From the NCBI GenBank assembly GCA_903831805.1, contig CAIKZD010000009.1, positions 145,192 to 209,191 of the forward strand: a stretch of DNA of 64,000 nucleotides. Reading direction: 5' to 3'. The translations under genes and the position numbers were made by a program. The notes below the pieces were generated by a model. That model was not told the origin of the DNA, searched no databases, and was given only the letters and a program-made list of their open reading frames with translations. The stretch comes from an uncultured bacterium. Its GTDB lineage: Bacteria; Patescibacteriota; Minisyncoccia; Moranbacterales; UBA2206. Shown one piece after another: positions 1-60,740 of this stretch; the first letter of the stretch is position 1, and the number at the start of each line of letters is the position of its first letter.

Positions 1-983
1 ATCTCGGACCAAGTTTTTTTGACCTGCTGGTATTTATAATGAAAAATTTTTCTAGCCGCTATTCCGTAGGAAAAAAGACAACTGTTTGATCCGAAGGATG
101 ACAAGATATAGGCGTTATTCTCCATGTGGCAATTCAGATCCAGCCCGATCTTTTGCGCCAAGTTCGACTGGTCATTGCCTGACGCACCGTTATGCGTGAT
201 TGAGTAGGCAAAAATCTTCGAATTGGAAAAGCCAGTGTGCAGCTCGCTATAGAGCTGAGGAAAATTCAAAACAAACACCACCGCAAAAACCAAAATAATT
301 TTTTTCCACACTCGCCAATTTTTCTTCAAGAGATAAACAGATACCAAGAAAGAAACTGTTCCAAAAAGCAGCGCCGTGATGATGTGCAACTGCAGCCCGA
401 CTCCGCTGGCCACGCCCAATGCAGCCACCCAACCCCAGGCAGTTTTTTCTCGGTGAAGTAAAAATTCATACAGCGCCAATAAAAATAGTAAAGAAAAGAA
501 TGGCAATGAATTGGGATTCCAAGCAAAACGGGAATATTCGACGGCAAAAAATGAAACGGAAAAAAGACCGGTCAACGCCAATGACAGATTGACACTGAAA
601 ATTCTTTTCATAAAAATATAGAACAGCGGAATGGTCAGGATGGAAAAAAGCAAGTCCGGATAGGCTAGCTTATCCGGATAGTTTCCGAAAATTTTGCCGG
701 AAATGATTTGGAAATAATAGTAAATCGGCCCAAGATGAAACAGGCTATCCATGGCATCCTGCGAGCCGCGCATGGTCGGGCCAAGGAGCGGCCAAGCGGT
801 TTTTCCGGTCAAAACATCACTCGCGAGAATTGCGTCCCGCGATTGATCATTTTCAAAATCCAACCAGGCGTGAAAATTGTAGGTGCGTAGAAAAACCCCG
901 ACAAGCATTATTGCTAAAAAAATCCAAAAGCTTTTTGGCGTGTTCTTCAATCTCTCCTTGATTATGACCGCATAATTTTTCAT
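1..983 (-). CDS. GT-C polytopic membrane glycosyltransferase (ArnT/PMT-like), N-terminal ~327 codons; gene continues beyond window start
   Basis: Minus-strand ATG at 981-983 and a frame that stays open to nt 1. It is absent from the ORF track because there is no in-window stop. Hand translation MKNYAVIIKERLK...DQSRD...EYSRFAWNPNSLPFF is clearly paralogous to CDS 2186..3943. Confidence 0.6.
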   Translation of the reverse strand, partial: MKNYAVIIKERLKNTPKSFWIFLAIMLVGVFLRTYNFHAWLDFENDQSRDAILASDVLTGKTAWPLLGPTMRGSQDAMDSLFHLGPIYYYFQIISGKIFGNYPDKLAYPDLLFSILTIPLFYIFMKRIFSVNLSLALTGLFSVSFFAVEYSRFAWNPNSLPFFSLLFLLALYEFLLHREKTAWGWVAALGVASGVGLQLHIITALLFGTVSFLVSVYLLKKNWRVWKKIILVFAVVFVLNFPQLYSELHTGFSNSKIFAYSITHNGASGNDQSNLAQKIGLDLNCHMENNAYILSSFGSNSCLFSYGIAARKIFHYKYQQVKKTWSE

Positions 984-992
984 CTGTTGTTT

Positions 993-2189
993 TTAAAAAA
1001 ATATTCCAGAATGCAGAAGCATATACACCAAGCCGGACGAGAGTAATAGAAAATAGGTCACTAATACCGCTTCAACTTTAAAACTAAATTCTTTTCGTAA
1101 TAACAAAATTAGGACCAATGGCACAATTGCATAGCGCTGTTCCACGAGCCATGACGGCGCAAGTGCAGCCAGCGCAAACGGAAAAATCATCAGCGCACTT
1201 TTTTCCAGTTTCATGAGAGCTAAAGTTACGCAACCCAAAAAAATCGTGAGCGCATAAGCCCAGGCATATTGATGATAGGCAAAAAATAAAATAATATTTC
1301 GCAAAAATTTCATCTTCATATTATATTCATGCACCGCCGGCGGAAAAAGCAAGAAGGCCGCCGCCAGAATGAGACCGAGGCCCACTCCCCAGCGGATATT
1401 TTTTTCGAGTTTAATTTTTCTGACACTAGCGATAAAAACTGGCAAAAATAACACTCCGACCAAGGCCAAGAAAAAATAAATATTGCCCAAATAGAAACCG
1501 ACTTGCTGGTGGGCTCTGTCCCCGACCGCGACGCCCTTGTTCACAAAAACAAAACCAAGAAACAGAAATGCCACTAGCGCATAGCCGGCGACGCGACGCA
1601 AATGCGCCAGAATTTTTTCCGAAGAAATGACATAGCCGTTTTCTAAAACATAAGTATAGATCCACAGAAAAGCGCCCCAGACGATGTTATTCTGCCGCAC
1701 CAAAAGCGAAATGAACAAAAAAACCGCCGACCAGACATATTTTTTCCGAATGGCGAAATAGAAAGCCAACAGCACCCAGAGCAGTGAAAAAATGTCCGTA
1801 TACATCAACGGGAAATAAAAAAAAGTCACCGGCAGAAAAATATATTGCAGCGTTTTCAATCCTGGATTTTCCGCCTGAAGTTTTCGGGCGGTCAGATAGA
1901 AGATGGGAATGGAAAAAAGCGCCAGGACCAGACTGATAAGACGCAAGTGGGTCGTGCGTAAATTAGGGAAAAAATCAGCGATAGTCGCCACGGTCAAATG
2001 ATAGCCGGGCAGTGTGGTCATTTGAGAGAGCAATTCATAGTTACCTTTCATAAACCGATGAATCTGACGTAAATGATCACTTTCATCCGCATACGAACCA
2101 TCTCCCCAGAAAATCACGCCGACCCAAATGGCGATAGCCACCAGCAAAAAGAAAGCAAATCCCCAGCGTTTTTTATCCATATCTTTCAT
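993..2189 (-). CDS. polytopic membrane protein, putative GT-C glycosyltransferase with DIE2/ALG10-like N-terminal motif
   Basis: The track ORF 993..2216 begins with TTG. The first ATG (2187-2189) overlaps the upstream gene's stop as ATGA. About 10 TM helices are predicted. The motif Y-A-DE-S-D-H-L-RQI near the N-terminus resembles the Y-x-DE-x-F-H-x-PQ motif of the ALG10/DIE2 family. Family assignment is by eye only. Confidence 0.45.
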   Translation of the reverse strand: MKDMDKKRWGFAFFLLVAIAIWVGVIFWGDGSYADESDHLRQIHRFMKGNYELLSQMTTLPGYHLTVATIADFFPNLRTTHLRLISLVLALFSIPIFYLTARKLQAENPGLKTLQYIFLPVTFFYFPLMYTDIFSLLWVLLAFYFAIRKKYVWSAVFLFISLLVRQNNIVWGAFLWIYTYVLENGYVISSEKILAHLRRVAGYALVAFLFLGFVFVNKGVAVGDRAHQQVGFYLGNIYFFLALVGVLFLPVFIASVRKIKLEKNIRWGVGLGLILAAAFLLFPPAVHEYNMKMKFLRNIILFFAYHQYAWAYALTIFLGCVTLALMKLEKSALMIFPFALAALAPSWLVEQRYAIVPLVLILLLRKEFSFKVEAVLVTYFLLLSSGLVYMLLHSGIFF

Positions 2190-3943
2190 TTCTTTACCCC
2201 AAAAATATTTTTCCAATATAACCTATCCGATTCTCCCAGGCTGGAACTTTTTTTCACGTTGAAATCCGGCAGAATAGTTCGGCCTGGAAAAACCAATTCC
2301 CACACTGCAATCTGGCCGAATTGTTTTTCCGACATAACTTGGAAAGGGGCATTGATACCAATTTTATTACCCAAAGAACTGGCTTTGTAATCACTTGGCA
2401 CCACTGCGAAATATTGGGCCTCCGGATCGCCGCTGTCTAATCTAAGCGAGGAATAATAATTCAAGCTCGCATCATGCTTCCCAGAAAATAAATATTCCAA
2501 CGGCCGCACGTGTTCCGGTTTGACATAGAAATAAATTCGACTGCCAGATTGTCTTCGGGCATACATATAATCCGTTGCTCCTTGTAACTGCCCCAGCGTT
2601 ACACCATCTTTTACTTTAAGAATGAGGGTGCGCTTCACAATAGAATGCTTGATTTGAGAAGAGGCTTGTTCTTGGAACCAGGCTCGCGTCCCAACAACAT
2701 TACCGCCAATGACCGCCGCCGCCAAAATGAAAATGGCCATCGGATAGAATTTATGGCGACTCTCTTCCAAGGCTTCAAAAATAAAACCCAGTAGGATAAA
2801 AGGCACGGCGAAAGTGAAGATGAAAAAGCGCGGCCGGATATTATATGACAGCGGAATACACAGCACGAAAAAAACGCTCACCCATAAGAAAATAACCATC
2901 AAAAAATCTTTCTTTTCTTGACTGAGATTACCTCGAATAAATTTTTTAGCAATACAATAAAGACCGCCCAAAAAAATAGCGAGCGTGAACAAGATTGGCA
3001 CATAACTGGTAGACGTAAGATTCTGCGGATAGAGATAGCTAGTAGTAATCATGGTGTAATTACTAAGTTGTTCGTTGAGATTCATCGTAAATTTATCCAA
3101 GAAAGGTTTTTTGACCGGCTTGGAACTGAGGGCCTCGATGAAATCTTTAGTGTTAGCGCCATGCTTGATGGTGTCGCTAATAATGACGGGCGTATAAAAA
3201 ACTAGGAATACTGCCAGGGCCGTGGCGACTGAAAGTAGAATTTTTTTGAGAATATCTTTTTGAAAAATTTTGGCAATATTATTTTTTTGCCAAAGGACAT
3301 AATGATAAATGATTAAAAGACCTGAGACGCCGATGAGACAGAAGAAACCGACAAAATGCAATTGTGATCCGATAGTGAGACCAAGCGACCAGAGAGCCAC
3401 CCACACAACGCGCCATTTTTCCTCTTTGGCATTCAGCAACTTAAGCAGGGCCAAAAAACTCAGAATCGTGAAAAAAGGCAATGAGTTCGGATTCCAAGCG
3501 AAACGAGAATACTCGATAATGATATAGGCGAAGGCATACATCGCAATAATCAGCAGCGACACATAACGCTTGAAATAGTAACGCGCAAAAACATAGAGCA
3601 ATGGCAGGACCATCACCCCGAAGAATAGATCCGGATAGGCAAATACCTCTGGCGAAGTGGAATGGAAAATGACGCCGGACAGATATTGGAAATAGTAGAA
3701 CACTGGCCCAAGATGCAAAAAACCATATTTCACTTTGGTCGCACCGGCGCGCGCCCCGAGGAGCGGCAAATTGCCCGGACCGTTGGTGACCGCACTGGAA
3801 ATGGTGAAGGCATCGCGCGACTGATCCATCTTGAAATAGAGCCAGTCATGAAAATGGTAGAACCGCACCGCAAAAGCCCCTAGCATAATAGCGAGGACAA
3901 TGGCGGGAATGACATATTTTTTCCGGAGGAAATTTTCAAGCAT
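2186..3943 (-). CDS. GT-C polytopic membrane glycosyltransferase (ArnT/PMT-like) with C-terminal extracytoplasmic domain
   Basis: 585 aa. A multi-TM N-terminal ~400 aa region carries an acidic DQSRD loop motif. The C-terminal ~180 aa is soluble. Paralog of the truncated CDS 1..983. Confidence 0.6.
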   Translation of the reverse strand: MLENFLRKKYVIPAIVLAIMLGAFAVRFYHFHDWLYFKMDQSRDAFTISSAVTNGPGNLPLLGARAGATKVKYGFLHLGPVFYYFQYLSGVIFHSTSPEVFAYPDLFFGVMVLPLLYVFARYYFKRYVSLLIIAMYAFAYIIIEYSRFAWNPNSLPFFTILSFLALLKLLNAKEEKWRVVWVALWSLGLTIGSQLHFVGFFCLIGVSGLLIIYHYVLWQKNNIAKIFQKDILKKILLSVATALAVFLVFYTPVIISDTIKHGANTKDFIEALSSKPVKKPFLDKFTMNLNEQLSNYTMITTSYLYPQNLTSTSYVPILFTLAIFLGGLYCIAKKFIRGNLSQEKKDFLMVIFLWVSVFFVLCIPLSYNIRPRFFIFTFAVPFILLGFIFEALEESRHKFYPMAIFILAAAVIGGNVVGTRAWFQEQASSQIKHSIVKRTLILKVKDGVTLGQLQGATDYMYARRQSGSRIYFYVKPEHVRPLEYLFSGKHDASLNYYSSLRLDSGDPEAQYFAVVPSDYKASSLGNKIGINAPFQVMSEKQFGQIAVWELVFPGRTILPDFNVKKSSSLGESDRLYWKNIFGVKK

Positions 3944-4053: not shown

Positions 4054-4992
4054 ATGAAATCAATTTCCATCATAATTCCGGCTTATAACGAGGAGAAAAA
4101 CATTCCCTTAGTATACCAGGAACTGAAAAAGGTTTTTGTCAAATGCCCAGACTATACTTTTGACATCTTGTTTGTCAACGATGGCAGTGCTGACGGCACC
4201 CTGGCCGCCATTGAAAAATTGGCGGCAGCTGATCAGGCTGTGCACTACCTCGACTTTACACGTAATTTCGGCAAAGAAGTCGCCACCACCGCGGCCTTGA
4301 ACAATTGCCAGGGCGACGCCTGCATATTAGTCGACGCCGATCTGCAGCACCCTGTCGAACTTATCCCAACATTCATCAAAAGTTGGGAAGCTGGTTTTGA
4401 AGTGGTCGTGGGCGTCAGGAATAAAAATAAAAGCGTGGGCATACTGAAAAAAATCGGCTCAGCCATATTCTATAAAATAATTAACCAGATCGCGGAAGTC
4501 AAAGTGGTCCCCAACGCCACGGATTTCCGCTTGCTCGACCGCGCCGTCATCCACGAATTCAATCACTTCACCGAAACCAATCGCATGACACGCGCCCTCA
4601 TTGATTGGCTGGGCTTCCGCAGGGACTATATTCATTTCGACGCCAACGAAAGACTGCACGGTGATGCCAGCTATAGCTTTTGGAAACTTTTCCGCCTAGC
4701 GCTCAACAGCTTCGTATCATTAAGCCTCTTACCCCTGAAACTGGCGGGCAATTTAGGCATCGTCATCACTCTTGTCGCAGGCGTTTCCGGCTTCTACATC
4801 CTGCTGGGGAAATATTTCTTCCATTGGCACTTCGCCGCGACGTTTTCCGATTCAGAAAATTTGGCCATCTTGATCTTATTCCTAGTAGGAATTATCTTGA
4901 TGTCCATCGGGCTCCTAGCGCTCTACATCGCCAATATCCACAGTGAGGTCATCCGTCGACCGATGTATGTGATCCGGAAGAAAAAAGCATAA
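4054..4992 (+). CDS. GT2 polyprenyl-phosphate sugar synthase (GtrB/ArnC/Dpm1-like)
   Basis: 312 aa. IIIPAYNEE...VNDGSAD...VDADLQHP GT-A signature, followed by two C-terminal TM helices typical of GtrB/ArnC. Confidence 0.8.
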   Translation: MKSISIIIPAYNEEKNIPLVYQELKKVFVKCPDYTFDILFVNDGSADGTLAAIEKLAAADQAVHYLDFTRNFGKEVATTAALNNCQGDACILVDADLQHPVELIPTFIKSWEAGFEVVVGVRNKNKSVGILKKIGSAIFYKIINQIAEVKVVPNATDFRLLDRAVIHEFNHFTETNRMTRALIDWLGFRRDYIHFDANERLHGDASYSFWKLFRLALNSFVSLSLLPLKLAGNLGIVITLVAGVSGFYILLGKYFFHWHFAATFSDSENLAILILFLVGIILMSIGLLALYIANIHSEVIRRPMYVIRKKKA

Positions 4993-5017: not shown

Positions 5018-6940
5018 ATGTTCCATAAGAAAAACACCCTTGTTTTTGCAGTTATTTCAATCGTCCTGGCTGCCAATCTGTCCTTTGCCTTGCCACGCAT
5101 CGCTAAATATTCCTCTGTGGACGAGCCCTATTGGACTTATGGCCGTATTGCCAAATTCTGGACCGCCGTCTCCCAACAAAACTGGAGAGGCACTAACATC
5201 AATGACAAGCCCGGCATCACCACTGCCATCCTGGCCGGCCCGGGCCTTTTGGCCATTGACCCGATGCCCTACAAATCACTCCGCGAACAAGTCAAAAGTC
5301 CAGCCACCATCGCCGCCATTCGAAAAATAAACTTTTCTTTCCGCCTGCCGATCTATCTCATGAGTTTGATCTTTTTCCTCTTGTTTTATGTTTTTTTGAA
5401 AAAACTTTTCGGCACCGCCATAGCGCTCTTGTCGCTCATCTTCATCGGACTTTCCCCCATCCTCATTGGCATTTCCCTCATTATCAACCCCGACTCACTC
5501 CTTTGGGGCTTTCTGCCGCTCGCCATCCTTGCCTATTTGATCCACCAGAAAGAATCGGCTGAAAACGAAAAAAGCGAAAAGATAAATTTTGCGGACACCC
5601 CGCCAGGAAAAATAATTTGGCGCATCATAAAAGAAAAGAAATATTTACTGATGGCCGGACTATTTTTAGGTCTGTCTATCCTGACCAAATATGTCGCTAA
5701 CATTTTATATGTCTATCTGCTCGGCCTACTTTTCCTGGAATATATCTACAATTTTCACGCTAAAAAAAATCCAGCCGCCTATCTCAAAAAGGCCATATTT
5801 GAATATCTAGCCGTCATAGTCGTGTCCATGCTCGTCTTCTTCCTGCTTTTTCCGGCTTGTTGGCATACGCCCAGCATGGTCCTGGGTGGCACCTTCCTCA
5901 GTCTGGCTTTCAAATCCACCTGGCCGCTTTTTGCCGGATTTCTCGGTTTGATTTTGGCCGATTTGCTACTTCTAAAAAGTTTTTTCGCAGAAGCCGTTCT
6001 GAATTTTTTAGCCAAACACAAAAATCTATTCAAAAAATTATTCAGCACCCTACTTCTCCTTGGCACGATTTTTGTTTTTGTAAATGTCTACAGAGGCATG
6101 CGATTCATAGATTTTGAAGCGACCGTGGCATCGCCCAAAGGTGGCAGCGGACTGGACCCGCTCAGATTTATCTCAGAACTTTCGGCCAATCTCTATGTCC
6201 TCATCTTCAGTCTCACGCCTTTGGTCTTTCTTTTTTTCCTTTGGGCCATTTTCGTCAACGCCTTCCGAAAAGCAGAACTTGCCACCAGAGAATCTACCGT
6301 CGTCTTGTATTTCTCTATTTTCATCGTGCTCTACTATATCGCTTCGGAAGTTAATCATGTCGTGGCCACCACGCGCTACCAGATTGTTATCTTCCCGATG
6401 GCAGGAATCATGGCCGCCATCGGCTTAAAACAATTCCTCTCGCAGTTTCCCTGGGGAAGCCTGACCTTGCCTACGCACCGTTACTGGACTTATGCGACGA
6501 CCATCCTGCTCTCCGTATTCAGCTTGTATCTCATCTCGCCCTTCTTCTTCAACTATGCCAGCCTACTCCTGCCGCAAAAATACGTCCTTAATCTTAAAGA
6601 CATGGGCGACGGCAGTTATGAAGCGGCGCAATTTCTCAACACTTTGCCGGATGCCAAAAACATCACCATTTGGTCAGATAAAGGCGCGGTATGTGAAACT
6701 TTTGCCGGCACTTGCAAAGTCAGTTTCAGCCGGAAAGACACGGAGGGCATTGCTTTTAAATATTTTGTCGTGTCCACCGGCCGAAAAAGTCGTTCCCTCA
6801 AAATGTCCTCCCCCTTCAACAGTTCAGTGGATTTCAAAAAATTATATTCCTCGGAAGAATCGGGAATTTTCCGCATCAACATTGGCGGACGAGCCAACGA
6901 CTTCGTCAAGGTGGTCCCGATTGAACACATAGCAAAATAA
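5018..6940 (+). CDS. GT-C polytopic membrane glycosyltransferase (GT39/PMT-like)
   Basis: 640 aa. Many TM helices. SVDEPYW acidic motif in the first external loop. Large C-terminal soluble domain. Confidence 0.5.
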   Translation: MFHKKNTLVFAVISIVLAANLSFALPRIAKYSSVDEPYWTYGRIAKFWTAVSQQNWRGTNINDKPGITTAILAGPGLLAIDPMPYKSLREQVKSPATIAAIRKINFSFRLPIYLMSLIFFLLFYVFLKKLFGTAIALLSLIFIGLSPILIGISLIINPDSLLWGFLPLAILAYLIHQKESAENEKSEKINFADTPPGKIIWRIIKEKKYLLMAGLFLGLSILTKYVANILYVYLLGLLFLEYIYNFHAKKNPAAYLKKAIFEYLAVIVVSMLVFFLLFPACWHTPSMVLGGTFLSLAFKSTWPLFAGFLGLILADLLLLKSFFAEAVLNFLAKHKNLFKKLFSTLLLLGTIFVFVNVYRGMRFIDFEATVASPKGGSGLDPLRFISELSANLYVLIFSLTPLVFLFFLWAIFVNAFRKAELATRESTVVLYFSIFIVLYYIASEVNHVVATTRYQIVIFPMAGIMAAIGLKQFLSQFPWGSLTLPTHRYWTYATTILLSVFSLYLISPFFFNYASLLLPQKYVLNLKDMGDGSYEAAQFLNTLPDAKNITIWSDKGAVCETFAGTCKVSFSRKDTEGIAFKYFVVSTGRKSRSLKMSSPFNSSVDFKKLYSSEESGIFRINIGGRANDFVKVVPIEHIAK

Positions 6941-6954
6941 CCAATCTGCGGCTT

Positions 6955-8568
6955 ATGGTGCCCTTACGTCATTACAAAAAAATCATCTTCTTCTCGGCCA
7001 TAACTTTAGTCGTGCTGGGTAATTTATTCTTAGTCACAAGAAGTAATCGTGCCATCAGCGTCCCCCAAAAATATCTCTCGCAGGAAGATGGCATCATTCT
7101 TCCGAAAACACTCGTGCCCACGCCTTTCGCTGATTCTTTGAATATAATCGAGACACACTTCCCCGATCGAACCTGCAACATCGCCGATTATGGCGCGGTA
7201 CCGGGAGGGCAAGTTAAAAATACGCAAAGTTTCGCTAAAGCAATTTCCGCTTGCTCGGAGCAGGGCGGAGGAAAAGTCGTGGTTGGCCCAGGCGTTTGGC
7301 TCAGCGGCCCGATAAGGCTTGAAAGTAATATTGATTTAGAAATTCAAAAAGATGCCACACTATTATTCAGCACCGACTTCTCCGATTATTTACCCCCGGT
7401 TTTTTCCCGCTTTGAAGGCGTCGAATATTACAACTATGCCCCACCAATTTACGCCAACAATGCCGAAAATATCGCTATCACCGGAGAGGGAACCTTGAAT
7501 GGCCAAGGCGAGGCGTGGTGGAATTTTTCCGGCAACACTTCCATTGTTAAATTATATGCGATGGGAGAAAGTAATCTACCTGTCGATCATCGCATTTTTG
7601 CGACCGCCAAAGACGGCTTGCGTCCAAGCTTCATCGAATTTGTCAATTGCAACCGGATTTTTCTTTCCGATGTGTCAATCCTAAGAGGTCCGATGTGGAC
7701 TATCCACCCCCTTTACAGCCAAAATATCATCATAAAAAATGTAACCGTCAACACCGCTCCCGGCCCCAGTACGGACGGCATCGTGATCGATTCTTCGCAA
7801 AACGTCCTGGTCGACAATGCCACCCTGTCCACCGGCGACGATGCTATCGTCATCAAATCCGGCCGCGACAATGACGGACGCCGGGTCAACTTGCCTTCAA
7901 AAAATATTGTTTTGCAAAATATCATCATTAATGATGCGCACGGCGCCATCGCCCTCGGCAGTGAAATGTCCGGCAACATAAGCAATGTTTTGGCACAAAA
8001 TTTCACCATTGCCAACGCTCAATATGCTTTTCGCGTCAAATCCAATCAACAACGCGGCGGCACTGCGGAAAATATTTGGATCAAGGATCTGAAAATAAAC
8101 TCCTTGAGTGAGGCGCTCATCCAGCTGGACACCTATTACGAAAGAAGAGTCACCGGCTACACTAATTTCCCACCTGTTTTTCGCAATATCAACATCGACG
8201 GCGTAACTTGCAAAAATACAATCGGTTCCATTAATATTTTCGGACTCTCAGAGAATACTGAGGCTATTAACAATCTTAGCCTAAGGAACATCGCCATTCA
8301 AAAGGCCAGAAGCGGCATGGATATCAATGATGTCCAAGGCATTAATTTTGAAAATGTGTCCATCAATTCTAAATATGGCCCGATTCTCGACGTGAAGGAT
8401 TCGCAAGACGTCACAGTTTCAAATTTCACCTGCCAGAACCCCCGCCTCACCTGTTTCCATATCGGAGGAATAAACACCAAGCACATTATCTTGGACCAAA
8501 AGAATAGCAGTCTGGCTATTGAGAAAGAAGTGTCCAAGAATGAAATAATTACGCCTGCTGCTAACTAG
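6955..8568 (+). CDS. membrane-anchored glycoside hydrolase family 28-like (polygalacturonase-type right-handed beta-helix)
   Basis: 537 aa with an N-terminal TM anchor. Motifs STDGI, TGDDAI, AHGAIALGSE and FRVKS match the GH28 NTD / GDD / G-HG / RIK pattern. Confidence 0.55.
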   Translation: MVPLRHYKKIIFFSAITLVVLGNLFLVTRSNRAISVPQKYLSQEDGIILPKTLVPTPFADSLNIIETHFPDRTCNIADYGAVPGGQVKNTQSFAKAISACSEQGGGKVVVGPGVWLSGPIRLESNIDLEIQKDATLLFSTDFSDYLPPVFSRFEGVEYYNYAPPIYANNAENIAITGEGTLNGQGEAWWNFSGNTSIVKLYAMGESNLPVDHRIFATAKDGLRPSFIEFVNCNRIFLSDVSILRGPMWTIHPLYSQNIIIKNVTVNTAPGPSTDGIVIDSSQNVLVDNATLSTGDDAIVIKSGRDNDGRRVNLPSKNIVLQNIIINDAHGAIALGSEMSGNISNVLAQNFTIANAQYAFRVKSNQQRGGTAENIWIKDLKINSLSEALIQLDTYYERRVTGYTNFPPVFRNINIDGVTCKNTIGSINIFGLSENTEAINNLSLRNIAIQKARSGMDINDVQGINFENVSINSKYGPILDVKDSQDVTVSNFTCQNPRLTCFHIGGINTKHIILDQKNSSLAIEKEVSKNEIITPAAN

Positions 8569-8581
8569 TTGACGCAGTAAA

Positions 8582-9514
8582 TTATTTACGCGCGCGCAGA
8601 TAGACTGGCAGAGCAAAAAAGCTGATAAGCATTTGAACAAAGCGACTGATAATGGCCACGGTCACAGCCGCCGAGGCACTCACCCCGAAAGCGCCAAAAA
8701 AAGCGATGTAGGTCCATTCTTTGATTCCAATATTGTTAATACTGATCGGAATGGAAGAGACAATGCTGATGAGAAAAATGGCTGACAGATAATCCGCCAG
8801 TCCGATTTTTATCCCCAGCGCCGCAAAAAGGATGTAATTAGCCAGAGCCACGCCGATAAAATAAAAAGCGAAAGACAAAACAGTTACTCGTCTCAAGATG
8901 TTGCTATCATTATTATACGTACCCAGATCAATCATAAACGCCACCACTTTGTCCGGGAAATATTTTTTGAAGCGCGCCCAAAAAGACTTTTTGCGCAGTT
9001 TCATAATGAGAATGTCGACCAAAAAAGAAAGGGCCACCAGGAGATTGGCAATGACCAATGTTCGGCTGCCGAGGACGTGGCTAAGATTAAGCACGGTGAA
9101 AAAAATCGTCAAAATAGTGGCCCCGAGAAGACCGGTGATGCGATCCATCATAACAGACGAGGCCGCTTCCAGATATCTATTTTGCGCCTTACCGGTCTCA
9201 TACGCTTTGAAAGTGTCGCCTCCGATAAAAGACGGCATGAAATTATTAATGAACGTCCCGGTCAAATAGTATTTGAAAAAATCGCCGAAAGATAGTTCGA
9301 TTTCTTTGTAGTTGGCCAAGACTTTCCATTTGTAAGCGCAAATAACCATACCCAGAAGAACCGCTAGAATATAGGCCAGCATAAACGGCCATTTGATCGA
9401 TTCAAAATTTTTGAGCACGTTCAACCAATCTACCTTAAAAATCACCCAAAACAAAAAAAAGGCACTGATAATCAGCTTTAGAATTATTTTGATATATTTT
9501 TTAAATATTTTCAT
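8582..9514 (-). CDS. flippase-like membrane protein (LPG-synthase TM / UPF0104-type)
   Basis: 310 aa, 8 TM helices. TFINNFMPSFIGGDTFKAY block typical of the LPG_synthase_TM family, which is commonly paired with GtrB-like GT2 enzymes. Confidence 0.55.
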   Translation of the reverse strand: MKIFKKYIKIILKLIISAFFLFWVIFKVDWLNVLKNFESIKWPFMLAYILAVLLGMVICAYKWKVLANYKEIELSFGDFFKYYLTGTFINNFMPSFIGGDTFKAYETGKAQNRYLEAASSVMMDRITGLLGATILTIFFTVLNLSHVLGSRTLVIANLLVALSFLVDILIMKLRKKSFWARFKKYFPDKVVAFMIDLGTYNNDSNILRRVTVLSFAFYFIGVALANYILFAALGIKIGLADYLSAIFLISIVSSIPISINNIGIKEWTYIAFFGAFGVSASAAVTVAIISRFVQMLISFFALPVYLRARK

Positions 9515-10667
9515 ATAAAGCGTAATATTCTTTCGCTACATTTTGCCAGCTCAACTTGAGAGCGCGCACTCGACTGGCCTCCCCCATTTTTTCCCGCTTT
9601 TCCGGGGAATTGAGCAGTTTTTCAATTTTCGAAGCGATGTCAGTCGCATCTTTCATCTTTATAATATACCCATTCTCGCCGTCCGTCACTAATTCTTTAG
9701 TTCCGCCAGTATCTGTCGCTAAAATAGGAAGTCCGGATGACATTGCCTCAAGAACAGTATTGCTCATACCTTCATTGAGAGACGGCAGAACAAATATCTG
9801 CATACCGCCATAGAAAGCTGGCATCTCGCTATGGCTAAACGATCCTAAAAATTCCACATTGTCGTTGATACCAGATTCTTCAACCTGTCTCTCAAATTTT
9901 AGCCTTGCATTGCCGTCACCAATAATTTTTAATCGCACCTGAGGATATCTTTGCAGTAAAATCGCCGTGGCATCAATCAGATAATTTATCCCTTTCCGGT
10001 CAGTCAGACGAGAAGTGGAAACTATATTAAATTCTCCTTGGGACTCATTATTCTCTTGCGCATCATTAGGTTTGAATTTATCAGTATCAACCCCATTGTA
10101 AATCACCCCGATTTTTTGTTTCGGATTTGTTTTTAAGGCTAGTTCTTTCAGGCCAAGAGAATTGGAAATTACCGCTGCCGCTTGCCGCCAAATTAGTGAG
10201 AAAAGCGGCTTTAGCAAAGCATAAATCAAGGGCCAACGATCGGAATAGCCCGGCACATCCGAACCGCGCAGCGATACGATATAAGGAATCCCAAATTCCC
10301 ACTTGAGCAATATTGAAATGAAGCCACTCGGCAGGGTGAAAAAAGAATGGGACAGGGCATAAGGATGTTTTTCTTTTTGAGCGGTCTTGATCAAACGGCG
10401 CGAAAACCAATAGGCGCGCCAAGTATACATCAGGAGATCTTTGGTTGATTGCAAATGCAGATTGTTGGCATTTTTGCCGATGGGCAAGCGATGAATTTTC
10501 ACGTTCTCGCCAATTTTTTCCAAATGATATTTTTGGTCGACAGAAGAGGTCACCAAATCAACTTGGATATTTTCCATTTTGGCATATTCGCCCAAAATAT
10601 TAGCGGTAGCATTGGCCGCGCCGCCGCCGAGGGGCGGATATTCATAATTTAAAAAAAGAATGCGCAT
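9501..10667 (-). CDS. GT4 family (GT-B) glycosyltransferase
   Basis: EGMSNTVLEAMSSGLPILATDTGG motif. The track ORF starts at TTG 10712. ATG at 10667 gives the classic MRILFLNYEYPPLGGG N-terminus, 4 nt after the upstream stop. Confidence 0.8.
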   Translation of the reverse strand: MRILFLNYEYPPLGGGAANATANILGEYAKMENIQVDLVTSSVDQKYHLEKIGENVKIHRLPIGKNANNLHLQSTKDLLMYTWRAYWFSRRLIKTAQKEKHPYALSHSFFTLPSGFISILLKWEFGIPYIVSLRGSDVPGYSDRWPLIYALLKPLFSLIWRQAAAVISNSLGLKELALKTNPKQKIGVIYNGVDTDKFKPNDAQENNESQGEFNIVSTSRLTDRKGINYLIDATAILLQRYPQVRLKIIGDGNARLKFERQVEESGINDNVEFLGSFSHSEMPAFYGGMQIFVLPSLNEGMSNTVLEAMSSGLPILATDTGGTKELVTDGENGYIIKMKDATDIASKIEKLLNSPEKREKMGEASRVRALKLSWQNVAKEYYALYENI

Positions 10668-10671
10668 AAGC

Positions 10672-12021
10672 CTATTCAAGTTTATCTCCCCTGCCGATGG
10701 CATAATATTCAAAACCAGCTTCCTTCACCACATCCAGATCAAAAAGATTTCTGCCATCGAAGATAATAGGGTTAAGCATTAAGCCTTTGATTTTCTCAAA
10801 ATTAGGCGAGCGGTATTCTTTTGTTTCAGTGGCAATAATGAGAGCTGCACAGCCCTTCAGCATTCCATATTTATCATGCTCCTCATATGATATCCCCTTT
10901 CTTCCTTCAAGATAGATCTCCTTAGCTTCATTAATGGCCAGTGGGTCATAAGCGATAATCTCAGCTCCTTTCTTCAAAAGCTCATCAATAATAACAATGG
11001 AAGCTGATTCTCTCATATCATTAGTATTGGCCTTGAAAGCCAACCCCCAGATGGCGAACTTTTTTCCAGACAGATCTTCTCCGAATCTAGAGATGACCTT
11101 ATTTGAAATAACCGTCTTTTGATAATTATTCACTCCCTCGATAGCTTCCAGTAGATCAAGATAAGGTTGCGGAAGATTTATTTTCTTAGAAGAACTTATT
11201 AAGGCTTTAACATCTTTTGGGAAACAACTGCCACCATAGCCGCAACTGGCATGCAAGAAACTATTGCCGATTCTCGGATCACTACCCATGCCTTCCGCAA
11301 TCTGTTCGACGTCTGAACCCAAAAGTTCTGCAATAGCCGCCACTGTGTTTATATACGATATCTTCATGGCTAAATTAGTATTGGAACTATATTTAGTCAA
11401 CTCAGCTGCCCGCACGCCCATTCTATGAAAACGATCTTCTCTCATCATGAACGGCTTATACAATTTGTGCATTTTAGCCGCCACCTCGTCACTGTCCGTG
11501 CCCAAGACTATTCGACTAGGTTCCATCATATCTTTGACCGCCCGCCCCTCCGCCATAAATTCCGGATTGCTTATGACATGAAATTCAATCTGCTCTCCAC
11601 GCATATCCAATTCACTTTGGATCAAGGCCCTAACTTTTTCAGCGGTCCCGACCGGCACAGTCGATTTATCAGCCACAATGAGAGGGTGTGTCATCCGTCT
11701 TCCAATTTCATGCGCCACACTTTCCACATACCGCATATCGGCACTGCCATCGTCTCCGGGAGGAGTGCCTACGGCTATAAAAACAATTTCCGCTGAAAGA
11801 AGCGTGTCATCATAATCGGATGTAAAATGCAACAGATTTTGATCCATGCCTCTTTTGACCAGCGCTGCTAGTCCTGGCTCTTCTATTGGAAGAATCCCCT
11901 TTTTCAAATTTTCAATTTTTTTCATATCTACGTCAAGGCACCAAATCTCATTTCCCATATCAGCAAAAGCCGCCGCCAGTGGCAACCCGACAAAACCGAT
12001 CCCAACAACTCCAATTTTCAT
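10672..12021 (-). CDS. UDP-glucose/GDP-mannose dehydrogenase family enzyme, most likely UDP-glucose 6-dehydrogenase
   Basis: 449 aa. MKIGVVGIGFVGLPLA Rossmann N-terminus, GYGGSCFPKDV catalytic Cys motif, C-terminal UDP-binding domain. Confidence 0.8.
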   Translation of the reverse strand: MKIGVVGIGFVGLPLAAAFADMGNEIWCLDVDMKKIENLKKGILPIEEPGLAALVKRGMDQNLLHFTSDYDDTLLSAEIVFIAVGTPPGDDGSADMRYVESVAHEIGRRMTHPLIVADKSTVPVGTAEKVRALIQSELDMRGEQIEFHVISNPEFMAEGRAVKDMMEPSRIVLGTDSDEVAAKMHKLYKPFMMREDRFHRMGVRAAELTKYSSNTNLAMKISYINTVAAIAELLGSDVEQIAEGMGSDPRIGNSFLHASCGYGGSCFPKDVKALISSSKKINLPQPYLDLLEAIEGVNNYQKTVISNKVISRFGEDLSGKKFAIWGLAFKANTNDMRESASIVIIDELLKKGAEIIAYDPLAINEAKEIYLEGRKGISYEEHDKYGMLKGCAALIIATETKEYRSPNFEKIKGLMLNPIIFDGRNLFDLDVVKEAGFEYYAIGRGDKLE

Positions 12022-12039
12022 ATTAATAAAAGTGAATTA

Positions 12040-12978
12040 TTAGTGTGTCTCTATTTCTTTGATTGCATAATTCATCCGCCCCTGCTCTTTGTAATAGCCC
12101 CGGATAATAATGTCTGCTAAAAGGCCGAAGATGAAAAGGATGACGCCAATCATAATGAAGAAAACGCCAATGAGCGGCCAAATCTTATCCGCCAGCGAGG
12201 CCTTAAAGAATATTTTTTCCACCGCCATCCAAATGATGATAGCCAAGCCAATGAGCGACAGAACTACGCCGCTGCCACCAAAAAGATGGAGCGGGCGCGA
12301 AGAATATTTCCGCCAGAACCAAATGGAAATCATATCCACCATCCCTTTCATCCCCCGTTTCCAATTATATTTAGTCACGCCGTGCACGCGCGGAAAATGA
12401 TTGACTTTCACTTCGGAAACTTTATAGCCGTCAAACTGCAAAATGGCCGGCATAAAACGATGCATCTCGCCGAACAAATCCACGTCGCGGAAACATTCGC
12501 GTCGATAGGCTTTCAAGGAGCAACCGGAGTCATGGATGTTATCTTCAATCAAGATTTGGCGCACGAGGTTAGCCAGCCGCGAAGACAGTTTTTTCATGAA
12601 CGGATCTTTCCTCTCGGCTCGCCAACCGGCCACCACGTCAAAGCCTTCCGCCATTTTGGCCAGCAGTTTCCCGATATCACTCGGGTCATTTTGCAAATCA
12701 CCGTCCATCGTCACCACCATTTCGCCCGTAGCATTTTTTATCCCCGCGTCAAAACTGGCCGTCTGGCCATAATTCTTGCGAAAACGAATGAGTTTCAACG
12801 GCGCGAGACCCTCGCAATTCTTCACGGTCGCGTCCGTCGACCCGTCATCGATAAAGATAATTTCATATTTTTTTCCCAAAGCTTCGCAAGCATCTTTGAT
12901 GCGGCGATGCAATTCTTTGACATTCCCTTCTTCATTATAAAGTGGCACCACCACCGACAAGTCCATTTTTCCTTCCAT
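12040..12978 (-). CDS. GT2 polyprenyl-phosphate sugar synthase (GtrB/ArnC/Dpm1-like), second copy
   Basis: VVVPLYNEEGN...FIDDGSTD...MDGDLQNDP signature plus two C-terminal TM helices. Confidence 0.8.
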   Translation of the reverse strand: MEGKMDLSVVVPLYNEEGNVKELHRRIKDACEALGKKYEIIFIDDGSTDATVKNCEGLAPLKLIRFRKNYGQTASFDAGIKNATGEMVVTMDGDLQNDPSDIGKLLAKMAEGFDVVAGWRAERKDPFMKKLSSRLANLVRQILIEDNIHDSGCSLKAYRRECFRDVDLFGEMHRFMPAILQFDGYKVSEVKVNHFPRVHGVTKYNWKRGMKGMVDMISIWFWRKYSSRPLHLFGGSGVVLSLIGLAIIIWMAVEKIFFKASLADKIWPLIGVFFIMIGVILFIFGLLADIIIRGYYKEQGRMNYAIKEIETH

Positions 12979-13116
12979 AAGTTTTAAATTTATCCCCCTT
13001 AACTCTTACCCTTCAATAATATTATAATTTAGGCATTATGGCAATTACAAAAAATAGCATATAAAAAAGGCAGCCTTGACGCGACATGACCGCCTTTTCG
13101 TTTCCCCTCCTTACTT

Positions 13117-15934: not shown

Positions 15935-16000
15935 GGCCAATTCCCTCCTGAAATATTTTTAGGCTAATACCTGCCTTTTCACACATTTTCCGTATTTTAA

Positions 16001-19700: not shown

Positions 19701-19781
19701 AGATACGACCACAAAAGACATGGCAAAAAATGCAATCGATAAAAAAATTATCAGTTTCCTATTTTTATTTTGTTTTCTCAT
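16728..19781 (-). CDS. large secreted protein: signal peptide, parallel beta-helix, LCAT/PGAP1-like alpha/beta-hydrolase (putative lipase/acyltransferase)
   Basis: 1017 aa. N-terminal signal/TM. Repetitive beta-helix region. AYDWRQS and VTIVAHSNGG (GHSxG nucleophile elbow) as in the lecithin:cholesterol acyltransferase family. Confidence 0.6.
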   Translation of the reverse strand: MRKQNKNRKLIIFLSIAFFAMSFVVVSIFYSHPTVAAEVADGGICANAEDSGCDIKKDVTLQKGLYVFNKSIHVYGGATLTIEPGAKIEFMKDSSGDNTSISILGGRILAEGTHDDPIYISSKETKHRGSLIYFRNDLYYDNSGKTSSPESRLKYVKISGGGESPESGGGTCQNCQVFQNFLHSFINSAYATDYGQAALDFYGGKLRLESCQFSDNAGVDVNVDLRVRSRNQNDSLKIIRSNFENNVDDMAVISNIYGPGLASNSNLLNMLVLENNWYDSPDGPKFNLSSSIGGEGVINGALTNGYHNTKWDLFSENSSVMFLPGIKASKLYKKGVLGSEDQLWPPNYFGNDVSELALDEDGGSINDVYTRDIIEEVGAPVIGNNIYKTFRANLNSLKENLTIDDYNLFAYDWRQSVEDVAGYGTPYEEETKSAVGELEKLAEDSQNKKVTIVAHSNGGLLAKAIVKRLEEMGKTEMVDKIILVGTPQMGTPKGVLSLLYGYDEEMIGGSLMNRAEARKLAENMPGAYGLLPSREYFNRLEEPLIDFSAVNPAHNTRYKKFKEDYGESIGKGEFDEFQDFLTGEKDGRVKPAENEIESENILKKNLLEQADQTHQNLDSWNLPENIKLIQIAGWGLDTISGLSYAEKEKVKCYAAPGAKIPSCTGIGEYEPIYEPKWTVDGDEIVTTPSALMMSGNSNTEKYWMDLYRYNDVNPDVDHSNILESDSINRFISDIIKNENQASLPEYIKTSRPEDYANAKPRIRMSLHSPLDIHLYDEKNNHTGPKIITDENGNERTIFEENIPNSYYQQFGERKYVGFPEGQNIRIEMEGYGSGAYTLKLEEIALVGGNEKALSQTTFANLPVSEKTNVSFYIPEDGLSNVSEIRADFDGDEKIDYTVSPIVNGEATLPEAYAMTPSIFRDSVEKYYQDGLIKGKSGKNVLLSGMKLIEEADKLLKMIEANPFINWRAKKVLIAAIERQLENQFDVMIKLVQKDKKNYAPAIKDILIEDLKFIKDNL

Positions 19782-24597: not shown

Positions 24598-24610
24598 ATT
24601 TTGTATGCTA

Positions 24611-25039
24611 CTAATTAAGAGCCTTAAATATTCCCCCGACAGCCATTGGGAAAATGATATAAACAAAAATAAACGCATAGGTTACAATTATTGCAATAGA
24701 AATAATTAGCGAAATAAAAAATGATCTTATATTTATCTTATCATAAATTATTTTTGTGAAAATAAATGGGGATGTAATTATAAGCAATAGCACTATATAT
24801 ATACTCCCCATACTTATTCCATCGAAATAATCAAGCTGATTATAATGATGAATATATTTTAAAATAAAGTCATATATAACTGTTGTTGAAAAATAAAAAA
24901 ATATTAGCGTTAACAGTGAACTTAAACTCACATACCGCCATCTACTTTTTTCCTTCAAAAACCTCAACCAAAAAAACGGCGAGATTATGATGCCGGCAAT
25001 GAGAAATGAACAAATCCAGATAATTAAAGTTTTAATCAT
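24611..25039 (-). CDS. small integral membrane protein (hypothetical)
   Basis: 142 aa, 4 TM helices. Confidence 0.4.
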   Translation of the reverse strand: MIKTLIIWICSFLIAGIIISPFFWLRFLKEKSRWRYVSLSSLLTLIFFYFSTTVIYDFILKYIHHYNQLDYFDGISMGSIYIVLLLIITSPFIFTKIIYDKINIRSFFISLIISIAIIVTYAFIFVYIIFPMAVGGIFKALN

Positions 25040-26192: not shown

Positions 26193-26195
26193 GAG

Positions 26196-32526: not shown

Positions 32527-32543
32527 ATTCTTCAATCAGTTTC

Positions 32544-33727: not shown

Positions 33728-33741
33728 AAGCATTTAAAAAC

Positions 33742-49656: not shown

Positions 49657-50613
49657 CTACTTTGACATTTTATAGTATTCCTTGTACCACTCCACCCAAT
49701 TCCCAATTCCCTTTTCAATTCTGGTAGTTGGCTTCCACCCAAGCTTGCGAAGTTTCTTGATGTCCGCCACGGTGGTTGGCACGTCGCCCGGTTGCATCGG
49801 GAGCATTTTCTTCTTGGCCTTTTTGCCCATATTCTCTTCCAGCACTTCGATGTAGCGCATGAGCGTCTCTTCTTTGTCGCCGCCGATGTTCATCACACCA
49901 TAACCCTTGCACTTATCGAGCACCGTGAGCGTACCTGAGACTATATCATCAATGTACGAGAAGTTGCGGCTCATTTTGCCACGATTGAAAACATTGATCG
50001 GTTTGTCATGCGCAATGGCATCAGTAAACAGGAACAGGGCCATATCCGGTCGGCCCCAAGGACCATAAACGGTAAAGAAACGCAGGGCGGTGATATTCAG
50101 GCCGTAGATGTGATGATAGACATGGGCGATGAGCTCATCAGCTTTCTTGGACGCGGCGTAGGGCGAAATTTGCGTGTCTACGGGGTCAGTTTCGGAGAAA
50201 GGCGTCTTAGTATTATTGCCATAGACCGAAGAAGAAGACGCAAACACAAAATTTTTGATCTTATATTTCACCGCCGCTTGGAGCAGATTAAGACTGCCCA
50301 TCACATTCACGTCGAAATATAATTTGGGATTGAGCAAAGAATTGCGGACGCCCGCCATGGCGGCCAGATGGATGACTTTATCAATTTTTTCATGCTTGAA
50401 AATCTTCTCGATCAATTTCTCATCCCGAATGTCTCCGCGGTAGAGTTTGAATTTGTAACCTTTCAAAAACTTTTTGATGCGTGCTTCTTTCAGGGTCGAA
50501 TCATAATAATCGTTGAAATTATCAATGATAACCACTCGATCCCCCCGGTCCATTAATTTTTTGGCGCAAGCGCTGCCGATAAACCCCGCCCCGCCGGTAA
50601 TGAGTACTTTCAT
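49657..50613 (-). CDS. NAD-dependent epimerase/dehydratase, UDP-glucuronate 4-epimerase-like
   Basis: 318 aa. MKVLITGGAGFIGS...DNFNDYYD...YAASK. Length and motifs resemble Cap1J/GAE-type UDP-GlcA epimerases. Confidence 0.65.
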   Translation of the reverse strand: MKVLITGGAGFIGSACAKKLMDRGDRVVIIDNFNDYYDSTLKEARIKKFLKGYKFKLYRGDIRDEKLIEKIFKHEKIDKVIHLAAMAGVRNSLLNPKLYFDVNVMGSLNLLQAAVKYKIKNFVFASSSSVYGNNTKTPFSETDPVDTQISPYAASKKADELIAHVYHHIYGLNITALRFFTVYGPWGRPDMALFLFTDAIAHDKPINVFNRGKMSRNFSYIDDIVSGTLTVLDKCKGYGVMNIGGDKEETLMRYIEVLEENMGKKAKKKMLPMQPGDVPTTVADIKKLRKLGWKPTTRIEKGIGNWVEWYKEYYKMSK

Positions 50614-59882: not shown

Positions 59883-60740
59883 CTATTTTTGAGATTTAAT
59901 AAAGTCGCCCAGAACATCTTTCAAATCTTCTCTATCTGAAGCATAAGCTAGAATAGTTTTCAAATAATTGGCTGGATCGCCAGTTGTTAGCCATTGACCG
60001 TCCTTAATTTCTTTAGCCAGGAAAACTCCTCCTCTTCTTATATATTCCTTTATCGCATCAGTCACCCAAAGTTCATTGCCTTTTCCGAGACTGGTGTTTC
60101 TTAGAATATCAATTATTTCCTGGTTTAATATATATCTTCCAAATCCAGCTAAGCGAGAAGGGGCTTCTTCAATGGATGGTTTCTCAATAATGTCTTCCAT
60201 CTGATTGGTCCCCTCTTTCAATTTAACTATGCCATATCTAACCACATCCTTTTGCTCCACTTCCTGCACGCCCATAATCAAATTACCTGTTTTTTCATAA
60301 TCTTCCACCATTTGTTTAGTGAAAGAAGTTTTTGATTTCACCAGATCATCTCCAAAGCAAAAAATGAAAGGTTCATCATCGACGAGACTGGCCGCTGACA
60401 AGATAGGTACGCCGTTCCCATAGGGACCTTTTTGCCTAACGTGCACAAAATTAGCCATCTCGGCTATGCCCTCAATCATCTCAGCCAGATTATCTTTGCC
60501 ATTTTTTCGCAGATCAGCTTCCAATGCCACGCTATGATCGAAATGATCTTCCAGCGGTTTTTTATCCCACCGAGTGACAAAAATTATGTCCTCTATCCCC
60601 GCTTCGACCAATTCTTCCACTACTAATTGAATGATGGGTTTGTCCACAATGGGCAACATTTCTTTGGGCATTGATTTGGTGGCTGGCAGAAGCCGTGTGC
60701 CTGAACCCGCCACCGCGATAATCGCTTTTTTGATCTTCAT
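59883..60740 (-). CDS. galU: UTP--glucose-1-phosphate uridylyltransferase
   Basis: 285 aa. AIIAVAGSGTRLLPATKSMPKEMLPIVDKP. Confidence 0.85.
   Translation of the reverse strand: MKIKKAIIAVAGSGTRLLPATKSMPKEMLPIVDKPIIQLVVEELVEAGIEDIIFVTRWDKKPLEDHFDHSVALEADLRKNGKDNLAEMIEGIAEMANFVHVRQKGPYGNGVPILSAASLVDDEPFIFCFGDDLVKSKTSFTKQMVEDYEKTGNLIMGVQEVEQKDVVRYGIVKLKEGTNQMEDIIEKPSIEEAPSRLAGFGRYILNQEIIDILRNTSLGKGNELWVTDAIKEYIRRGGVFLAKEIKDGQWLTTGDPANYLKTILAYASDREDLKDVLGDFIKSQK

Follow-up and report, generated by a model that had tools for sequence, protein, structure and literature searches.

Why would a bacterium of the candidate phyla radiation (CPR) place a lipid-carrier glycosyltransferase and a UDP-glucose dehydrogenase in one transcription unit, beside a cluster of membrane glycosyltransferases? 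The question is raised by a 64,000-nucleotide stretch of DNA (hereafter, the window) from an uncultured member of the Moranbacterales, in the Patescibacteriota (contig CAIKZD010000009.1 of assembly GCA_903831805.1, positions 145,192 to 209,191). Four of its genes concern us here: GT2_2, the second of two family 2 glycosyltransferases; Ugd, a UDP-glucose 6-dehydrogenase; GT4, a family 4 glycosyltransferase; and Flip, a flippase-like membrane protein of the LPG_synthase_TM/UPF0104 family. An initial annotation suggested that, together with neighboring GT-C-type glycosyltransferases, these genes add uronic acids outside the cytoplasm from a lipid-linked donor. Phylogeny and comparative genomics support this proposal as the best current hypothesis: GT2_2 belongs to a distinct ArnC-like clade, and members of that clade co-occur with genes for uronic-acid nucleotide sugars.

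An ArnC-like synthase at the head of a four-gene operon

All four open reading frames were recovered with the boundaries first assigned to them, and all lie on the minus strand (Table 1). The gene content stands, but the order originally given, with the flippase-like gene first, followed plus-strand coordinates; transcription runs from GT2_2 through Ugd and GT4 to Flip. Only 18 nt separate GT2_2 from Ugd and 4 nt separate Ugd from GT4, and GT4 overlaps Flip by 14 nt. These tight spacings on one strand suggest that 12978..8582 is a single operon. (The likely GT4 start is the ATG at 10667, which yields a protein of 388 residues, the same length as the called ortholog in a close relative, L087; L-numbers denote the homologous loci compared with the window.) Upstream lies pyrC in the window and an LCAT-like lipase gene in L087, which is 91% identical, so this flank is not conserved. 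Because the operon has its own promoter-like site and its upstream flank differs in L087, it is independent of the pyr genes; pyrC and pyrK-pyrD were rejected as operon members on these grounds. At its other end, the operon converges tail to tail, across a 13-nt gap, on a plus-strand operon encoding the first family 2 glycosyltransferase (GT2_1), a GT-C protein and a family 28 glycoside hydrolase (GH28).

The identities of the individual genes are clear. Ugd contains three UDPG_MGDP_dh Pfam domains (E 6e-57, 2e-30 and 1e-28), and scores 418 bits against TIGR03026 (cutoff 190) and 434 bits against the Burkholderia UDP-glucose dehydrogenase 2y0e. Flip matches PF03706 over profile positions 1-297 of 302 (137 bits; cutoff 33.4) and TIGR00374 with 72 bits. 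GT4 finds only generic GT4 matches in both NCBIfam and the PDB.

GT2_2 had been labeled a second GtrB-like synthase. It is ArnC-like instead, scoring 168 bits against the ArnC structure 9bhc and 114 bits against the GtrB structure 5ekp. The alignment with ArnC spans residues 7-309, including both carboxyl-terminal hydrophobic transmembrane helices, at about 33% identity. The motif D92-G-D94-L-Q96-N97 (the DxDLQ metal/nucleotide motif) is intact, and R120, K129, S133 and R197 align with ArnC residues R128, R137, S141 and R205; in ArnC, these arginine, lysine and serine residues are assigned to binding of the acceptor and donor phosphates (PMC12690121). Judged from these alignments, GT2_2 has the full architecture and catalytic residues of a polyprenyl-phosphate glycosyltransferase of the Dpm1/GtrB/ArnC type. 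Its score against the ArnC equivalog model NF007986 is 181 bits, below the cutoff of 529. GT2_1 shares only 25% identity with GT2_2 and shows the opposite preference: 213 bits against Synechocystis GtrB (5ekp) versus 110 bits against ArnC, with 229 bits against the PgfS model (cutoff 500).

A neighbor-joining tree of 104 full-length Dpm1-type proteins, drawn from the window, the related loci, and E. coli ArnC and GtrB, separates the two synthases. GT2_1 and its CPR orthologs cluster with GtrB. GT2_2 lies in a separate CPR clade; its nearest neighbors are DPANN archaea and a small number of Clostridia/Bacteroidota-type sequences, all nested in a broad ArnC-like clade, with E. coli ArnC branching outside it as an outgroup. 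The closest non-CPR relatives of GT2_2, from DPANN archaea, are 49-51% identical. Phylogeny thus speaks against a pair of GtrB-like enzymes with no tie to uronic acids, the pattern that would have told against the initial annotation. Moreover, GT2_2 is highly conserved: among the matches listed, at least 120 cluster representatives, with names such as Candidatus Moranbacteria, Parcubacteria and Patescibacteria, show 71-100% identity, and identity is 70-91% for many Moranbacteria/Parcubacteria proteins.

Uronic-acid genes and partners of the GT2_2 clade

Gene neighborhoods were compared in 165 loci: 80 from species-representative genomes, 80 from metagenomes, and five on contigs of close relatives. 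Their reading frames were annotated with iterative profiles for Ugd, GT4, UPF0104, GT-C, GH28, GtrA, short-chain dehydrogenase/reductases (SDRs), and the E. coli Arn proteins. Co-occurrence was counted within 3 kb of the GT2 gene, after removal of duplicates, in loci with at least 1.5 kb of flank. NCBIfam models could not separate UXS, epimerase and GalE proteins, and PDB matches were ambiguous for the SDR of L018; signature residues settled most assignments.

The GT2_2 clade is linked to genes for uronic-acid nucleotide sugars, well above what chance would give. Ugd or an SDR with the signature of a UDP-glucuronate (UDP-GlcA) 4-epimerase is present in 18 of the 22 loci whose GT2 is at least 60% identical to GT2_2 (Ugd in every case); in 6 of 15 at 46-59% identity; and in 11 of 103 below 46%. 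In the closest class, Ugd mostly lies immediately 3' of the GT2_2 ortholog, on the same strand, in many independently rearranged loci. Among more distant loci, SDRs with the epimerase signature (SSSSVYG and FTVYGPxxRPD) occur near the GT2 in about ten, from DPANN archaea and other lineages: adjoining a clade GT2 in L013, L016, L019, L106, L107 and L110, and near but not adjoining one in L037, L147, L149 and L160. The SDRs of L018, L004, L007, L014 and L084 were also considered as UDP-GlcA epimerases, and were rejected by the signature-residue test.

Which glycosyltransferase uses the uronic acid? Ugd or the epimerase persists beside the GT2 in loci without GT4 (L002, L084-86, L097, L037, L106, L147 and L149), and Ugd remains beside the GT2_2 ortholog even in loci that have neither GT4 nor Flip (L002, L084-86 and L097). 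For example, the Micrarchaeota locus L037 encodes, in this order, a GT-C, Ugd, epimerase, GT2, methyltransferase and AsnB-like amidotransferase, and the 20 kb around it hold no GT4. Persistence of the link without GT4 points to the GT2, rather than the GT4, as the conserved consumer.

Genes for AsnB-type glutamine amidotransferases lie near clade GT2s in L037 (12094-14013), in L082 on an Azospirillum plasmid (12012-13922), and in the close CPR relative L087 (1-1879). Their recurrence would make sense if the carboxylate of a uronic acid were amidated. The DPANN loci L013, L016, L017, L018 and L037 share partners with the CPR clade: GT4, Ugd or epimerase, UPF0104, and GT-C. The position of the CPR clade beside DPANN sequences (48-51% identity), together with these same partners, suggests that the module has been transferred between domains.

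The window itself appears to encode the supply of donor. An SDR distant from the operon (Table 1) carries SSSSVYG, YAASK (the Y-x3-K pair) and FTVYGPWGRPD, and has equivalents of S128, T178 and R185, residues described as unique to the UDP-glucuronate 4-epimerase subclass (PMC10107529). A GalE is encoded as well. Because GalU, Ugd and the signature epimerase are all present, the organism plausibly can make UDP-glucose (UDP-Glc), UDP-GlcA and UDP-galacturonate (UDP-GalA).

The membrane partners recur also. A synthase for a polyprenyl-phosphate sugar, a candidate flippase, and GT-C proteins are encoded together in the window, and this combination is found repeatedly across loci. Flip-family genes adjoin clade GT2s in more than 20 loci that lack any GT4. 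UPF0104 genes that abut the GT2 are found in Nitrospira-type, Aquificota, Desulfobulbia-type, Sinorhizobium meliloti and Azospirillum loci, with GT-C-GT2-UPF0104 triads in Nitrospira-type contigs. Of these, the S. meliloti and Azospirillum homologs, the only ones that a plasmid collection yielded, are uncharacterized. One such locus, L083 of S. meliloti (CP090106.1, a 3.7-Mb record labeled pSymB; 6904-10458), holds an uncharacterized triad of a Flip gene, an ArnC-like GT2 and a GT39 GT-C, and offers a tractable model for the idea that UPF0104 proteins are flippases. In L084 (81% identical), a GtrA-family gene (9330-9776, minus strand) accompanies GT2_2-Ugd, and no UPF0104 gene lies within 10 kb; GtrA likewise takes the place of UPF0104 beside GT2_2-Ugd in L097. 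In some Moranbacteria, the flippase component seems to have undergone non-orthologous replacement. Archaeal UPF0104 proteins are predicted flippases for glycosylation, with AglD-like GT2 and PMT/STT3-like GT-C neighbors (PMC5898192); HexF of Clostridioides difficile provides a glycolipid precedent for the MprF-like flippase family (PMC10128005); and the UPF0104/PplT family has been proposed, in a preprint, as a general lipid translocator. Movement of a polyprenyl-phosphate sugar is the most economical assignment for Flip, although its substrate may be a glycolipid. Throughout the CPR loci, GT4 and Flip adjoin, even where they are separate from GT2_2-Ugd (L003 and L008).

The GT-C cluster noted upstream proved real, comprising four genes of this type. 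Three of them lie on the minus strand, divergent from GT2_1; the fourth follows GT2_1 in its operon. Orthologs of this fourth gene and of the 585-residue putative GT-C sit in CPR clusters, and the ortholog of the DIE2/ALG10-family gene comes after GT-C genes in L084. DIE2/ALG10 is the GT-C family of the eukaryotic dolichyl-phosphate-glucose alpha-1,2-glucosyltransferase, encountered here in a CPR bacterium. GH28 scores 296 bits against the Thermotoga maritima exo-poly-alpha-D-galacturonosidase 3jur and 318 bits against the BT4155 model, under that model's 800-bit equivalog cutoff; it keeps the family motifs STDG, GDD, HG and RVK (Asp, Asp-Asp, His, and Arg-x-Lys). GH28 genes with intact motifs are found in the cluster in four lineages (the relatives include L087/L089, L006 and L098), and in L006 and L098 GT2_2 is the sole polyprenyl-phosphate synthase near GH28.

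Table 1. Features of the window. Coordinates are positions in the window; those of minus-strand genes generally run from start to end of the gene.
Feature	Coordinates	Strand	Evidence or remarks
GT2_2, ArnC-like polyprenyl-phosphate glycosyltransferase	12978..12040	-	312 aa; PF00535, E 8e-33
Ugd, UDP-glucose 6-dehydrogenase (makes UDP-GlcA)	12021..10672	-	449 aa
GT4 (GT-B, retaining) glycosyltransferase	10667..9501 (open reading frame listed as 10712..9501)	-	PF00534, E 8e-45; PF13439
Flip, MprF-type membrane protein (PF03706/UPF0104/PplT)	9514..8582	-	310 aa; PF03706, E 1e-39
Promoter-like sites	13016..13050	-	TTGTAA-18-TATAAT (10/12) and TTGCCA-17-TATTAT, in the 138-nt pyrC/GT2_2 gap
GT2_1, GtrB/PgfS-like polyprenyl-phosphate hexose synthase	4054..4992	+	heads the GT2_1-GTC-GH28 operon
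PMT_2-like GT-C, candidate extracytoplasmic transferase	5018..6940	+	640 aa; PF13231, E 1e-6; PF02366, E 3e-4
GH28, membrane-anchored exo-alpha-galacturonosidase-like enzyme	6955..8568	+	PF00295, 101 bits; amino-terminal hydrophobic anchor
Putative GT-C, weak evidence	3943..2186	-	585 aa; only TIGR03663 (Agl23), E 6e-5; recruited by iterative GT-C profile
DIE2/ALG10-family GT-C	2216..993	-	407 aa; PF04922, E 6.5e-35
PMT/PMT_2 GT-C, amino-terminal part (runs off the window)	983..1	-	PF13231, E 8e-10; PF02366, E 4e-6
UDP-glucuronate 4-epimerase-like SDR	50613..49657	-	333 bits to 5u4q; 187 bits to the Bacillus cereus UDP-GlcA 4-epimerase 6zl6
GalU-like UTP-glucose-1-phosphate uridylyltransferase	59883..60740	-	TIGR01099, 286 bits, just under the cutoff of 327
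PyrK-like/PyrD fusion	14180-15940	-	586 aa
Giant LCAT/PGAP1-type lipase-like protein	16728-19781	-	1017 aa
Giant LCAT/PGAP1-type lipase-like protein	21358-24678	-	1106 aa
Wzx-type glycan island	25162-42049		31-34% GC (flanks 42-47%)
Defense/addiction genes	43765-47575	-	

A three-component model and its rivals

These observations suggest a model, to which we give an even chance, in which the four genes supply the cytoplasmic half of a three-component system for extracytoplasmic uronic-acid glycosylation: its intermediate would be polyprenyl-phosphate-galacturonic acid (GalA) or -glucuronic acid (GlcA), handled in an Rgt-like manner and delivered to an acceptor other than lipopolysaccharide (LPS). 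GalU would form UDP-Glc, Ugd would oxidize it to UDP-GlcA, and the epimerase-like SDR would convert UDP-GlcA to UDP-GalA. GT2_2, as an inverting enzyme of the Dpm1/ArnC type, would load the uronic acid onto polyprenyl phosphate, and Flip would carry the lipid-linked sugar to the outer leaflet (with GtrA in its place in the relative L084). At least one of the four neighboring PMT_2/ALG10-type GT-Cs would then pass the sugar to a surface acceptor, such as a protein, a wall glycopolymer or a lipoglycan, leaving an alpha-linked uronate. The anchored GH28 may trim or remodel the product glycan, and GT4 would, as its likeliest part, assemble or lengthen the acceptor or a primer on the cytoplasmic face. 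The donor sugar is judged from gene context: GalA is favored because GH28 is in the cluster and the epimerase adjoins the GT2 in relatives, and GlcA is possible because the CPR loci carry Ugd, not the epimerase, beside the GT2.

Several observations weigh against this model. In L005, L009, L099 and L101, GT2, GT4 and Flip occur together without an adjacent Ugd. In the window, 37 kb separate the epimerase-like SDR from the operon; GH28 shares a transcription unit with the GtrB-like GT2_1, not with GT2_2; and the consumer of UDP-GlcA or UDP-GalA could be GT4 or the Wzx-type glycan island (25-42 kb) instead. BLASTP found no similarity between the window's GT-Cs and E. coli ArnT. The curated models that match GT2_2 best are those for ArnC and PgfS. 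Donor specificity could be tied to no biochemical or structural determinant; papers on the ArnC and GtrB structures define catalytic and undecaprenyl-phosphate-binding residues and no sugar-specificity code.

How does the proposed system relate to known ones? The initial annotation drew a parallel with RgtE/RgtABCD, and part of it holds. RgtE provides the precedent for bactoprenyl-phosphate-GalA (PMC7663294). In Rhizobium leguminosarum, as predicted here, an ArnC-like GT2 loads GalA supplied through Ugd and a UDP-GlcA 4-epimerase, and GT-Cs (RgtA-D and RgtF) add alpha-GalA outside the cytoplasm; the GT2_2 clade shares the genomic link to UDP-GlcA/UDP-GalA supply. However, the Rgt acceptors are lipid A and the LPS core, and the CPR organism is presumed to lack LPS. 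The GT-Cs of the window are of the PMT_2/ALG10 type, not ArnT-like (GT83) or Rgt-type, and the cluster adds a UPF0104 flippase-like gene, GT4 and GH28. The system would work like Rgt but is probably not a member of the Rgt system.

Other comparisons are likewise partial. ArnC is the closest solved structure, with the same fold, tetramer-type architecture and catalytic residues, and Ugd supplies its pathway also. Nevertheless, identity is only about 33%, the score lies below the equivalog cutoff, ArnA, ArnB, ArnD and ArnT are missing, and the flippase belongs to a family other than ArnEF. The GtrA/GtrB/Gtr*, Gram-positive CsbB/GtcA/YfhO, and PgfS systems follow the same sequence of synthase, flippase, then GT-C, and GT2_1 belongs to the GtrB/PgfS-like group. 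Those systems, however, move neutral hexoses or N-acetylhexosamine (HexNAc), whereas GT2_2 falls in another clade, tied to uronate genes. Archaeal AglD/arCOG00899 neighborhoods, described by Makarova et al. (2015, PMC5898192), combine a Dpm1-like GT2 with a predicted UPF0104 flippase and a GT-C; AglD is a fusion that makes dolichyl-phosphate-mannose, whereas the proteins here are separate and linked to Ugd or epimerase. The C. difficile HexSDF cluster also places a glycosyltransferase gene directly beside an MprF-type flippase-only gene. Yet HexS is of the MGDG-synthase type and acts on a glycolipid, a deacetylase is present, and both polyprenyl-phosphate synthase and GT-C are absent.

The locus fits best among the three-component systems for extracytoplasmic glycosylation, a paradigm reviewed in PMC11127046, as a variant of a known mechanism. 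The parts that set it apart from known examples are an ArnC-like synthase linked to uronate, a flippase of the UPF0104 or GtrA family, several GT-Cs of the PMT_2/ALG10 type, and the added GT4 and GH28. A literature search for uronic-acid or GT-C systems in CPR found no such system described in the papers searched.

Three alternatives compete with this model. In the first, akin to HexSDF, GT4 would use UDP-GlcA or UDP-GalA to make a uronosyl-diacylglycerol-type glycolipid, flipped by Flip, while GT2_2 makes a neutral polyprenyl-phosphate-hexose for the GT-Cs; these might extend the glycolipid into a lipoglycan, as in actinobacterial lipomannan. The constant adjacency of GT4 and Flip in CPR loci, even when split from GT2_2-Ugd, fits this scheme. 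So does the HexS/HexF precedent of a glycolipid synthase with an MprF-like flippase (PMC10128005), as do weak matches of GT4 to PimA/PimB' and to a model for MGlcDAG synthase, and the position of the epimerase beside both GT2 and GT4 in L013 and L016. We consider it unlikely: Ugd or the epimerase stands beside a GT2 with no GT4 in reach in at least seven loci (L002, L037, L084, L097, L106, L147 and L149), more than 20 loci have Flip next to the GT2 and no GT4, and the matches of GT4 are generic.

The second alternative resembles archaeal Agl-type assembly. GT2_2 would prime polyprenyl phosphate with the first sugar, GT4 would add a second, the uronic acid, in the cytoplasm, Flip would translocate the polyprenyl-phosphate-linked disaccharide, and a GT-C would transfer it en bloc. 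The GT2 and GT4 genes adjoin or overlap in L005, L009, L011, L012, L016 and L018, and in the Geobacter-type loci L028, L032, L033, L035, L046 and L048; DPANN archaea are the closest non-CPR relatives of GT2_2; AglJ, AglM and Agl16 models give weak matches; and AglD itself carries a UPF0104 domain (PMC5898192). However, the Geobacter-type GT4s are not orthologous to that of the window (63-85 bits), an STT3/AglB-type oligosaccharyltransferase is absent, and several loci combine GT2, Ugd and GT-C without GT4. Moreover, GT-Cs of the PMT_2/ALG10 type typically transfer single sugars. This alternative strikes us as improbable.

Third, GT2_2 could be an ordinary polyprenyl-phosphate-hexose or -HexNAc synthase. 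Ugd would then adjoin it only as part of a shared envelope-glycan neighborhood, with UDP-GlcA feeding other cytoplasmic glycosyltransferases. The window is indeed dense in glycan genes, among them a Wzx flippase and 11 additional GT2/GT4 genes; an adjacent Ugd is missing from four close loci; and in L004, L092 and L098 the divergent gene upstream of GT2_2 encodes a non-uronate, GalE-like SDR. Mere neighborhood, however, does not explain the pairing of epimerase and GT2 in unrelated phyla, and Ugd lies directly 3', on the same strand, in many independently rearranged loci. The chance that GT2_2 is such an enzyme seems small.

A bolder version of the three-component model has a slimmer chance still. 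CPR bacteria and DPANN archaea would share a laterally exchanged module, in which several GT-Cs draw on polyprenyl-phosphate-GalA, outside the cell, to polymerize or decorate a surface polymer or lipoglycan that is acidic and resembles homogalacturonan; UPF0104 flips the donor, GT4 makes the anchor, and GH28 sets chain length. If true, the envelope would carry a pectin-like polymer made by an extracytoplasmic route in the style of mycobacterial arabinan.

A true ArnC pathway, making undecaprenyl-phosphate-L-Ara4FN for modification of lipid A, is almost certainly wrong: ArnC gives the best PDB and NCBIfam matches and Ugd catalyzes the opening step of the Ara4N pathway, but GT2_2 falls far below the equivalog cutoff, E. 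coli ArnC lies outside the clade, and Patescibacteria are generally taken to lack LPS. Searches with profiles built from the E. coli Arn proteins turned up no arnA/B/D/T-type operon in the window or around the 165 loci, and the ArnC-proper reading was rejected on this absence of partners together with the equivalog score. (Matches to the ArnA-seeded profile are single-domain SDRs; those to the ArnB profile are DegT-type aminotransferases, which adjoin the GT2 only in L134.)

Other genes of the window and the Patescibacteria envelope

The remainder of the window also concerns the cell surface in part. The pyr genes upstream of the operon include a single fusion protein that joins a PyrK-like electron-transfer part of dihydroorotate dehydrogenase (residues ~35-260) to a catalytic PyrD 1B-type domain (287-583); pyrC comes after it. 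The two giant lipase-like proteins contain beta-helix and Big_13 parts, and in L087 the gene that immediately precedes the GT2_2 operon encodes a third, LCAT-like homolog (6538-9825); such proteins may scavenge host lipids. The low-GC glycan island encodes several GT4/GT2 proteins, five methyltransferases, a DegT aminotransferase, a PglD-like acetyltransferase, a deacetylase and a Wzx-like flippase, and is probably a variable surface-polysaccharide locus. Beyond it lie genes for defense or addiction, which encode a Schlafen/AlbA_2-HATPase_c_4 protein and an AbiEii toxin; upstream of the toxin is its partner of 206 residues.

The envelope of Patescibacteria and DPANN archaea, whose chemistry is scarcely known, must mediate attachment to the host. 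The highly conserved module provides a concrete hypothesis: an anionic uronic-acid decoration, added extracellularly from a lipid carrier. If true, lipid-linked donors of uronic acid, which to date have been described for Rhizobium-type LPS alone, would extend to organisms without LPS. UPF0104/PplT proteins would gain their first functional context as bacterial flippases for polyprenyl-phosphate sugars, and a GH28 hydrolase would be tied to glycan biosynthesis instead of pectin catabolism.

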